Assembly: GCA_951406725.2 (NCBI GenBank)
Contig: OX597831.1
Location: forward strand, 26,288,001 to 26,352,000
Source of the DNA: Octopus vulgaris
Taxonomy: Eukaryota
Direction of reading: 5' to 3'
DNA: 64,000 bases
How positions within the stretch are numbered: position 1 is the stretch's first letter; each line of letters begins with the position of its first letter. Below the pieces are notes generated by a model that saw nothing but the letters and a program-made list of their open reading frames with translations, was not told where the DNA came from and searched no databases. This document shows, piece after piece, positions 40,885 through 45,036 of this stretch. Made by a program: the position numbers and the translations under genes.

Positions 40885-41108
40885 TTTCTTTACTACCCAC
40901 AAGGGGCTAAACATAGACGGGACAAATAAGGACAGACAAACGGATTAAGTCGATTACATCGACCCCAGTGAACTGGTACTTGATTTATCGACCCCGAAAG
41001 GATGAAAGGCAAAGTCGACCTCGGCAGAATTTGAACTCAGAACGTAGCGGCAGACAAAATACCGCTAAGCATTTCGCCCGGCATGCTAACGTTTCTGCCA
41101 GCTCGCCG
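40885..41108 (-). mobile_element. Young SINE type B
   Basis: CpG-rich; flanked by ctgtgtg(c/t)atatataca duplication at about 40868 and 41109. Confidence 0.9.
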
Positions 41109-41152
41109 CTGTGTGTATATATACACACTGTGTGTATATACACACTCTGTGT

Positions 41153-41191
<39 letters not shown>

Positions 41192-41520
41192 CATACTTAT
41201 AAATTCTGATAAATTAATTAATTTTGAAATCATTTATGGTTTCAAAAATACTGTATGTTCAGTATTGCTTTTTAACCCCTGTATGTATAATTATGTGTAT
41301 CTACCGTTAATTAGTTCTTCTATGATTACAAATTAAGAAAAACATATTATTTTTTTCTATGACCTACTTATGTTCCAGCTGGTGCAATTCAATGCCTCAC
41401 TTCTTCACCAAACACTCAGTCCATTAGAATTAAAGGAAAATTCATGCATTTTGCCTTCTCAAATATTGCAATATTTTCATAGATATTTTACACACAAAAA
41501 TACAGACAGATAGATATATA

Positions 41521-41563
<43 letters not shown>

Positions 41564-41564
<1 letters not shown>

Positions 41565-42057
41565 TGGCCCAGTGGTTAGGGCAGTGGTCGTAGGATCGCG
41601 GTCTCGATTCCCAGACAGGACATTGTGAGTGTTTATTGAGCCAAAACACCTAAAAGCTCCACGAGGCTCCAGCAGGGGGTGGTGGCGATCCCTGCTGTAC
41701 TCTTTTTCCACAATTTTCTCTCACTCTTTCTTCTCTTGGCCTGCTTGCTTAGCCAACGGGGTGGCGTCATTTGAAGGCTAAAACAATGTGAAGCGCATTG
41801 TGACCAGTTGGTGGCACGTAAAAAGCACCAACTGATTGTGTGGCCACTGCCAGCCTCCTCTGGCACCTGTGCAAGTGGCACGTAAAAAGCACCCACTACA
41901 CTCTCGGAGTGGTTGGTTTTAGGAAGTGCATCCAGCTGTAGAAACATCACCAGATCAGACTGGAGCCTGGTGCAGCCTTCTGGCTTCCCAGGCCCCAGAC
42001 GAACCGTCCAACCCATGCTAGCATGGAAAACGGACATTAAACGATGATGATGATGAT
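41564..42057 (+). mobile_element. Chimeric SINE: 14247-type head/body plus type C 3' module
   Basis: 41564-41730 matches 14257-14430; 41810-42057 matches type C ending in (GAT)n. Confidence 0.8.
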
Positions 42058-42380
42058 CACACACACACACACACACACACCTATTCACACATCTATATGC
42101 ACATACATTTATGATGGGATCTCCTGTCAAAGACGATGTATGGGTGTTCAGCTTTTTTCCAAATAACCGGCACAAATTTGTTTGTGGTAACCAAATGTTT
42201 GTGCCACCCATTAGCTCACTCTCTTCACTCAATTGACATTGACTGAACAGGTGCATGGTGCACCACATGTCAGGTGTCAAAGTGATTACGGAACAACATG
42301 AGAGATGAAATGTTTTGCTCAAGAACACAACACACCACCCGATCTGGGGATTGAAACTATGATCTCACCACCATCATAGT

Positions 42381-42606
42381 TATTTCTTTACTACCCACAA
42401 GGGGCTAAACACAGAGGGGACAAACAAGGACAGACAAACGGATTAAATCGATTACATCGACCCCAGTGCATAACTGGTACTTAATTTATCGATCCCGAAA
42501 GGATGAAAGGCAAAGTCGACCTCGGCGGAATTTGAACTCAGAACGTAATGCCAGACGAAATAGGGCTATGCATTTCGCCCGGCATGCTAATGCCTCTGCC
42601 AGCTCG
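42381..42606 (-). mobile_element. SINE type B nested in a minus-strand type D SINE
   Basis: 13-bp TSD ccaccatcatagt at 42368-42380 and 42607-42619. Confidence 0.9.
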
Positions 42607-43064
42607 CCACCATCATAGTGCAACACCCTAACCACTAAGTCATGCATCCTCTCCCAAGTCTCTTTCTTTTCAGAATCATTAAAAGCAAATGCACCATCAT
42701 CCCTGCAGACACATTCTCTCCTGTGACATCACAATTTTCTTTTGCACACTGTCTTGCAATCTGAAATACTTTAGTTGATTGGTTCTCACATCGCTGAACA
42801 TTGGCAAACTTCCTCTTTTCTGCTTCTTCCTTGTACCAAACCTCGTGTCTTCGCCATCAAGAATAAGGACCTAGTACTGTAACAACATGGGTTTAAAGAA
42901 TTTACATATATATCCCTCTATACACGATCATACAAACCCTTTTTATATATATATGTATATATATATAACGGGAAGCTTTATGAAAATAAACAAAAGACGA
43001 AGGCAAGTGGAATACAAACAAACAATTGTATTAGTATGGCGCTCAGGAATATAAATAAAACAAG

Positions 43065-43102
43065 TCTTTTACGTTTCGAGCCTACGCTCTTCAACAGAAA
43101 GA
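43065..43102 (-). ncRNA. Minimal type-I hammerhead ribozyme-like motif (Penelope type)
   Basis: Minus strand: UCUUU-CUGUUGA-A-GAGC-GUAG-GCUC-GAAA-CGUA-AAAGA. Perfect 5-bp helix I, 4-bp helix II, palindromic loopless helix III (ACGU), GUA cleavage triplet. Core A6 is U. Confidence 0.7.
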
Positions 43103-43686
43103 TACACAGAAAAGAAACACAGAGAGAAACAAGGAGAGAAAAAAAATGCGTGCAGAAGCTAGCGAATCAACATGGCGATGTATATATATACACATGCTAA
43201 TACAAGACCCACATTAAACTCCTCACTCATATCACTATCGAACCAAGAGTTTAACTACTATGGCCTGTCCATAGCACTTAATTAGCGTTACCTGCCACTC
43301 TTTGGATCTGCTAAATACCTGTACCTTTTATATATCATTGATTAACAGAAATATTGTACCGAAGTAGTAGGCTAAACAAATTGCATACAGTTTGCTTTTA
43401 GTTCTCACAACTCTAATAGCAGGTGAAAAAAGTGATCTATGATTGAATTGTGTCAGCTGGAATATTATCTAGGTCAAAGAACACATAAAACGTTGGTAAT
43501 TAGTTGTCATAGAAGAATTAATTTGCAACAAATAAAATAGATACACAAACAGGAAAGAAAAAACTTAATGAACATTCATTACATATATGCTGATATCAAA
43601 AATATAAATAAATATAGGAAGTTGGAGATGGTCATCTTTTGCTAATTAATCATACGTACTATATATTTCATACTTGATATTCACTT

Positions 43687-44764
43687 TATTATTGTTGTTG
43701 TTATTATTTAAGATGTCACACAGTACCCAATATCACAATGTTGTTGATTGAAGATATTGTGTCTACTGGGGGTTTATACTGTTTGTTAAGTCACAACAAG
43801 GACTTCAGATGGGCAGTACTTTACACAATATGTGTGCAGTTCGAAGTAGTGTGTACTTTTACGATACACCTAGATTCTAAGGTATTTCTGAAGTTTCCAG
43901 ATTTGTTTTTCAGACTGAGTGGCATTGAACACAATGCTCCAATGACAATAGGAACAACCTTTATGTTTGACTCTCATAGCTGCCACATGTTAGTTATCTC
44001 AATTCTCAGGTCTCCATATTTAGCAATATTTTCTCTTTCTTTCATGATAATATGTTGATCTCCTGGCACTGCCACATCGATTATTAGGCACTCTTGTTTG
44101 TCCATCCTAAAGGTTACTATATTTCCAGCCTTCAGTCCCTAACACCTTGTCTGTCTGGAATTCAAAGTCCCAGAGAATTTTCGCCTTCCCTTTTTCATTC
44201 ATTACCTTTTCCAATGTATGTTGGCACCAAGCAACCCCTTACCTCATATCCATACTTACAGCATAGTAGCCAGTGGAGGGTTTGGGCTACCTTGTCATGT
44301 CTGTACTTGTACTCTTTTTGTGCAAGACTTTCACAAGCACTAACAATGAGAGTCATGCTTTTGACCCTCTTTTGACCTCTGTAGAGGTTCGTTACACTTG
44401 TGTGGTATACATCCCTTTCCACTGAGTTAGTATTCAATGCCTGATCCCGGGCAGCAATGATTAGGCTTTCAGTATTCTTTTTTAGGTCACCCTTTCTGAG
44501 CCACCTCCATGACGCTTCTTGGTTTTTTGAGCTATTAGGTTCACAGTAGAACTGACCATGTAATTCCATGTGGAGTAGGGTTTCTTCTCTCTCGTTGGCT
44601 GTTCTTGATTGGAATTCCTGAGCACTCTCAAGTCCATTTTTGGTAAATCCTTCCGCATTAGCAGCATACTGTAGCAGGTCTTGTTGCTGTTTACCAAATA
44701 TTCTGCCAAGTTTCTTCTTTCACTGTTGATGCACTCCCGTATGCTAATTAGCCCATGTCCACCT
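43687..44764 (-). mobile_element. R4/Dong-like non-LTR retrotransposon remnant (zinc knuckle and restriction-like endonuclease region)
   Basis: GGHGL; LHGQF..WRWLRKGDLKKNTESLIIAARDQAL..LAQKEYKYRHDKVA..HW; KILWDFEFQTD; CLIIDVAVPGD..AKYGDL; VVPIVIGAL. Frameshifted, with (TAA/CAA)n tail. Confidence 0.9.
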
Positions 44765-44979
44765 ATTTGTCCCTCCACCATCGCTTGACAACCGATGTTC
44801 ATGTGTTTATGTTCCCGTAACTTAGCGGTTTGACAAAAGAGACTGTTAGAATAAGTACAAGGCTTACAAAAAATAAGTCCTGGAGTTGATTTTCTCAACT
44901 ATAGGTGGTGCTCTAGCATGGCCACAGTCAAATGACTGAAACAAGTAAAAGAATATATATTATACATATATATATATAC

Positions 44980-45036
<57 letters not shown>

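Follow-up and report, generated by a model that had tools for sequence, protein, structure and literature searches.

The insert in the window and its hammerhead motif

The stretch of octopus DNA analysed here (64 kb; hereafter, the window) lies in a genome of 2.8 Gb and contains, at positions 42967–43179 of the minus strand, an insert of 213 nt placed between two (TA)n tracts. The tract on the left, at the element's 3′ junction (42944–42966), is imperfect and approximately 23 nt long, and that on the right, at the 5′ junction (43181–43190), is a short (TA)5 of approximately 10 nt only. Nine CpG dinucleotides were found within the insert, at an observed/expected ratio of 1.23 versus 0.34 for the window, in agreement with the original prediction of a CpG-retaining insert of about 210 bp between (TA)n tracts. 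Position 42967 represents the fixed 3′ end shared among family copies, and position 43179 the 5′ break, which falls in a preferred class of 200–220 nt described below. A repeat at 42400–42560, approximately 400 bases from the insert, is presumably a cephalopod SINE.

The insert carries a minimal type I hammerhead motif (43065–43102, minus strand), as judged by sequence layout, folding and cross-family alignment; the predicted coordinates and layout, including helices I and II, the core and the palindromic ACGU, were confirmed. Helix I consists of the 5′ strand UCUUU (43098–43102) and the 3′ strand AAAGA (43065–43069), with an outer pair that is U-A here and C·A in older subfamilies. The core C3-U4-G5-U6-U7-G8-A9 (43091–43097) contains U6 (43094) in place of the canonical A6, followed by the subfamily-variable N7 (43093). 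Next come an extra A between A9 and G10.1 (43090), helix II (GAGC/GCUC) with a GUAG loop (43078–43089), and a segment containing G12-A13-A14, the palindromic ACGU and N17, here A (43070–43077). ACGU would form the loopless helix III only in a dimer, and the predicted cut site is located between 43070 and 43069. Among the features of Penelope minimal hammerheads, helices I and II, the extra nucleotide after A9, the palindromic 15.2–16.2 and G10.1-C11.1 were all present, and the CUGANGA core was replaced by one with U6. The extra A, suspected at the outset to be a family-level variant, is an ordinary trait of Penelope hammerheads: it was present in all four families aligned from the genome, and is named as a conserved trait of this class (PMC4209133, part consulted).

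The 25-nt core matched 6,664 exact copies in the genome, compared with none for the reversed control; the occurrence of this hammerhead-like motif is far beyond chance. The hammerhead model of Rfam was not matched at E≤10 in a scan of positions 41000–45000. The stability of the lone 38-mer was not unusual (folding z −1.64, not significant), the predicted ACGU duplex contributed only −1.7 kcal/mol, and in the minimum-energy fold the two core strands paired to each other. The predicted share of the open core was 0.007 for U6 with U7 and 0.04–0.16 for U6 with other N7 bases, versus 0.23 for A6. The motif with both helices occurred once in the window, not in tandem, and no partner motif was detected within the 64 kb. 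The solo copy in the window is likely to be inert.

Relationship to a coding Penelope-like retroelement

A genome search with the insert as query gave 1,319 candidates, the best 40 of which were 98–100% identical, indicating a large and young repeat family. Copies extending further upstream reached sequence coding for reverse transcriptase (RT) and a GIY-YIG endonuclease, and a protein search yielded 94 scored ORF matches with 99–100% identity, stop-free across the match. Twelve loci were then fetched for long frames. In six of them, the motif was located on either side of the ORF, approximately 4.5 kb apart; two (L205 and L206) overlap and together form a three-motif tandem, and the remaining four carried the downstream motif only. 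All 19 motifs in these coding loci contained U6-U7, with GUU at the cut site. The overlapping pair (G000:C6:117390500–117402500) is arranged head-to-tail with three U6 motifs at a period of approximately 4.47 kb, and this tandem is a candidate both for a source locus and for a natural substrate of dimer cleavage. One further locus, L099, showed the repeat–ORF–repeat unit with a broken ORF.

The protein encoded at L199 contains DKG, YIDD and a linker of the form CX4CXXC, and its GIY-YIG domain includes CCHH. Pfam analysis of the element protein detected RVT_1 (E 1e-7) and GIY-YIG, the latter at E 0.006, under the curated cut-off though its motifs were present; two homologs passed this cut-off. 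The organization is that of Penelope-like (EN+) elements, with a single ORF, carried by copies outside the window, in which RT is followed by a C-terminal GIY-YIG, with direct-repeat pseudo-LTRs at the 4.5 kb period and with the tandem arrangement noted above. DKG was located upstream of RT and CCHH within the endonuclease. The linker between RT and endonuclease conforms to CX2-5CXXC, by which the Neptune and Nematis clades are defined in the consulted part of PMC8557442. As judged by protein motifs and layout, the element is of Neptune/Nematis type; the 120 homologs listed contained no named reference.

The window copy belongs to a sister subfamily with GUA at the cut site and is 93.6% identical to both pseudo-LTRs of L199. 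Another GUA-subfamily copy, L164, retains endonuclease sequence upstream. Because of the match to L199 and this upstream endonuclease sequence, the insert is interpreted as a truncated piece of a coding element and not as a retrozyme: almost certainly the 5′-truncated tail, derived from the 3′ pseudo-LTR, of a young protein-coding Penelope-like retrotransposon that landed in (TA)n. The original prediction had offered a Penelope origin with two alternatives, and had proposed a search for linked RT and GIY-YIG ORFs. The origin was borne out, with intact coding copies in the same genome, as was the solo pseudo-LTR, the insert being a single copy collinear with the pseudo-LTR of coding copies. The other alternative, a non-autonomous ribozyme element, was not, as longer copies run into the RT–GIY-YIG ORF and the length of 213 nt recurs in two subfamilies at several breakpoints. 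The element type and the window copy are by themselves ordinary.

Substitution of U for A6 across the lineage

Whether U6 is fixed, and whether it reflects a family-level variant rather than decay, was left open by the original prediction. Based on genome pattern counts, U6 was present in 17,610 of the 18,333 copies in which helix II was held exact, comprising 6,664 with U6-U7 and 10,946 with U6 and another N7; the remaining 723 had a different base at position 6. These exceptions appear to be mostly transitions, since a hand count of the first 100 listed gave 72 C, 19 A and 9 G. A looser pattern detected 25,455 U6 motifs, compared with 198 matches for the control. Similarly, when copies were chosen by flanking sequence, U6 was found in 60/61 young copies and in 69/71 older copies, with 19 of 90 older copies lacking a recognizable motif. 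U6 is lineage-wide and a variant of the family rather than a sign of decay, as also observed in the coding loci. In contig data from four runs carrying four organism codes, N7 was listed as variable and N6 was not, a weak indication given by a table that missed the known N17 variant.

The A6 copies were located in the cluster with the greatest divergence, and A6 is also the base of the sister families; the A6U change is therefore derived, and these alignments place its origin in the oldest subfamily sampled.

Constraint on the motif

For the constraint analysis, 131 copies were aligned, and 125 of them, chosen by flank, were clustered on the flanks alone; those left out were a truncated copy and five that are nearly identical to one another and stem from a single decayed insertion. 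Clustering gave six subfamilies with 1.4–12% internal divergence. Within the motif, differences between their consensuses were limited to N7 (U, C, G or A), N17 (A or U, never G) and the outer pair of helix I, which changed from the C·A mismatch of the older subfamilies to U-A. By contrast, C3, U4, G5, G8, A9, G12, A13, A14 and helix III were unchanged, and loop II was also invariant.

Changes were detected in one of 32 constrained columns versus 33 of 69 ungapped flank columns (p 2.7e-6), in three of the 38 columns of the whole motif against the same flanks (p 1.5e-5), and in 18 of 51 columns when the downstream flank alone was used (p 4e-4), in a comparison of columns that are not independent events and with flanks that are pyrimidine-rich and of low complexity, and that may mutate faster than average and so inflate the contrast. 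The constancy of U6 itself was not significant, because approximately half of the flank columns were likewise invariant. The hammerhead core consensus leaves N7 and N17 free (PMC7151607, part consulted), and the pattern of conservation is that predicted for a hammerhead under selection. The invariance of loop II hints at a binding role, as catalysis should leave this loop free.

Covariation in helices I and II, a check proposed originally, was observed in part. Across nine hand-picked rows, double changes occurred in eight of nine helix pairs, a level reached in none of 500 shuffles, with most of this signal coming from two other families; covariation is thus seen between families, and within the U6 lineage it is confined to one pair of helix I.

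Predicted activity of the U6 motif

The motif is probably a self-cutting RNA that has been slowed and has not decayed: the lineage-wide A6U change is likely to lower the rate of self-cleavage while leaving the motif under selection. Some weak cleavage has probably been retained. A fuller proposal, which we put forward tentatively, is that of a natural A6U hammerhead present in approximately 25,000 copies, maintained by selection over five or more later subfamilies, and possibly still cleaving because the protein of the retroelement, dimer formation or a different metal ion compensates for a core change that disables ordinary hammerheads. As far as the relevant parts of the cited papers go, natural hammerheads with A6C provide the nearest precedent: one cleaves at <0.1 per min (PMC3088659), and such hammerheads are slow in Mg2+, cleave well in Mn2+ and prefer the latter (PMC7151607), the rate in one ribozyme being 3.55e-6 per min at 0.3 mM Mg2+ (PMC7151607). 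In a mutagenesis screen, changes in the CUGA turn gave low activity, with the exception of a C3-G8 swap (PMC9901934, part consulted).

The main alternative, which we regard as less likely, is that the U6 motif does not cut and is kept for another function, such as binding the element's protein, regulating translation or reverse transcription, or acting in DNA as part of a promoter. Changes at position 6 are strongly deleterious in vitro in the portions consulted of PMC3088659, PMC9901934 and PMC7151607, the invariance of loop II would suit such a function, and the U6 lineage has nevertheless amplified to its present copy number. According to the consulted part of PMC11167929, cleavage by a Penelope hammerhead required its protein, hammerhead mutants still inserted in vitro and uncut RNA served as template for insertion. 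In agreement with these findings on the template, none of the 67 octopus copies at risk ended 100–108 nt from the 3′ end, the interval that contains the cut site. However, the A6 sister family showed a similar upstream pile and no pile at the cut site (30 copies, by eye), and thus the lack of such ends does not separate U6 from A6. In addition, repeated changes in the core were limited to N7 and to A or U at N17, both of which catalysis tolerates, and the constrained core positions and helix III stayed unchanged, which argues against a non-cutting function.

It is very unlikely that A6U was a loss of function fixed by chance in a master copy, with the motif now a neutral relic. A neutral change can become fixed because few master copies seed each subfamily, and Naiad elements spread without canonical hammerheads (PMC8557442, part consulted), but the low level of change in the motif compared with the flanks across six subfamilies, together with the conversion of the outer helix I mismatch to U-A, largely refutes this explanation.

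Slow cleavage thus remains the preferred reading. Penelope hammerheads are poor cutters alone and dispensable for insertion in vitro, and this lineage altered a conserved core base, kept amplifying and kept all other constrained core positions. If the U6 motif cleaves, the hammerhead consensus widens, and searches requiring CUGANGA would overlook motifs by the tens of thousands in genomes of this kind; the A6-to-U6 series would then be a natural test of the purpose of Penelope hammerheads. If it does not, the motif would be selected for a function different from cutting. Both answers can be tested, as the same genome contains intact coding copies along with matched A6 relatives.

Insertion ends and proposed mechanism of insertion

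To describe insertion ends, we used 91 copies chosen by their 3′ motif, which came from 90 of the 100 matches at the head of a list of 5,435. The 3′ end of the element was fixed and the 5′ end variable, and (AT)n was found at the 3′ junction in 84/91 copies, supporting the microsatellite targeting suggested originally. The 5′ end lay at 200–220 nt in 30 of the 91 copies, 12 of them at one position; expressed per copy at risk, 30/54 ended in this interval and only 2/24 in the next 150 nt, length calls in this set not being true ends for approximately eight of the shortest, which are internal duplications or deletions, and for those of >370 nt, which stop in simple repeats. Both young subfamilies contributed to this class, and its breakpoints ranged over 202–219. 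A transcription start was considered as the explanation of this pile and set aside as such: upstream repeats extended past 330 nt in seven of the eight distinct repeat–body junctions shown, and a predicted hairpin is located at the same place, with the pile on its 3′ arm, so that a start site and a stall both stay in play. That the 213-nt unit is a non-autonomous retrozyme or SINE of its own, copied as a unit, would fit the preferred length and the high identity of the best 40 matches, but is highly improbable given the spread of breakpoints in two subfamilies, the collinearity with the pseudo-LTR of coding copies and the single window copy, non-LTR retrozymes being defined by non-coding tandem units, each with a hammerhead (preprint 10.64898/2026.07.22.740005, part consulted).

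The truncated tail of a coding element, our preferred interpretation, could arise as follows. The GIY-YIG domain would nick the (TA)n target, and reverse transcription would begin at the pseudo-LTR end, within RNA that has not been cut. Where units lie in tandem, TATATATT separates the end of the repeat from the element body, and for this reason the RNA past the pseudo-LTR end, running on as UAUAUAU, could anneal to the nicked TA target and prime. Synthesis would often halt 200–220 nt upstream, by a hairpin stall or at the 5′ end of the RNA, and the truncated product may be joined through AT microhomology. The motif would cleave slowly, only when two copies pair via ACGU in tandem transcripts, and would probably be helped by the element's protein.

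Two further arrangements were noted among the copies. Five of the 91 copies (L159, L221, L240, L246 and L260) share a short internal duplication close to the 3′ end and represent a variant of the young family; its recurrence suggests that this variant has its own source copy. At L225, L226, L109/L110 and L292/L293, truncated repeat ends formed short inverted pairs a few hundred bases apart, an arrangement described for Penelope insertions.

Comparison with known systems

The following comparisons refer to the consulted parts of the cited sources. The octopus motif shares with metazoan Penelope pseudo-LTR hammerheads (Cervera and de la Pena 2014, PMC4209133) the type I layout, a loopless palindromic helix III, a short helix I, the extra nucleotide between 9 and 10.1, G10.1-C11.1 and the prevalence of solo truncated copies. 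It differs in having a helix II of 4 bp and a CUGUNGA core instead of CUGANGA, the core variant described there being U3-A8. Like the C-terminal-endonuclease elements of Neptune/Nematis type (Craig et al. 2021, PMC8557442), the coding element has one ORF with RT followed by GIY-YIG, the DKG, CX2-5CXXC and CCHH motifs, pseudo-LTRs, tandem copies and a preference for (TA)n; unlike in those elements, the hammerhead core is non-canonical. A natural change at core position 6 is shared with the A6C hammerhead of phage Bcep176 (Perreault 2011, PMC3088659; Naghdi 2020, PMC7151607), but the octopus base is U and not C, it occurs in approximately 25,000 retroelement copies compared with a rare phage case, and the activity of Bcep176 was measured while the octopus motif is known from sequence.

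With Poseidon of Anolis carolinensis (Frangieh 2024, PMC11167929), the octopus element shares AT-rich targets, the absence of ends at the cut site and, as proposed here for octopus, an internal start of reverse transcription on an uncut RNA template. In contrast, the Anolis element belongs to the Poseidon clade and its hammerhead overlaps the ORF start, whereas in octopus the conserved Met lies approximately 0.75 kb downstream of the motif, and the RNA contains UAUAUAU, which is homologous to the target. Non-LTR retrozymes (preprint 10.64898/2026.07.22.740005; PMC7229834) also have a non-coding stretch with a type I hammerhead and kinship to Penelope pseudo-LTRs, but as tandem non-coding units, in contrast to the truncated piece of a coding element in the window.

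The Penelope element and the minimal hammerhead class are already known, and the lineage-wide A6U core is new as far as the literature search goes. No natural A6U hammerhead was found in the papers and supplements searched; figures, one supplementary file, preprint supplements and Lunse et al., on dimer-cleaving small Penelope hammerhead variants that may include A6U, were outside its scope. The single A6U match concerned twister, not hammerhead.

Other hammerhead families in the genome

A second abundant family carries a canonical A6 minimal hammerhead, with helix I GACAC/GUGUU and helix II GGCUG/CAGCC (L271, L272, L273, L276, L284, L287 and L290; G000:C1, 0.58–9.05 Mb). It is often preceded by a tRNA-like head, with a motif resembling a B box and a run of (AAT)n, and may represent either a hammerhead-bearing Pol III SINE or SINEs whose tails received insertions of Penelope ends. 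Some members of this family form inverted pairs (L285, L286), and one, L287, is a head-to-tail dimer. Within the A6 sister family, a subfamily with G at position 17, outside the NUH rule, has a helix I of only 3–4 pairs (L062, L068, L079–L082, L084, L085, L089 and L100). Finally, a U6 variant with an altered helix II and a UUCG-containing loop was detected in two occurrences (L330 and G000:C1:3779215).
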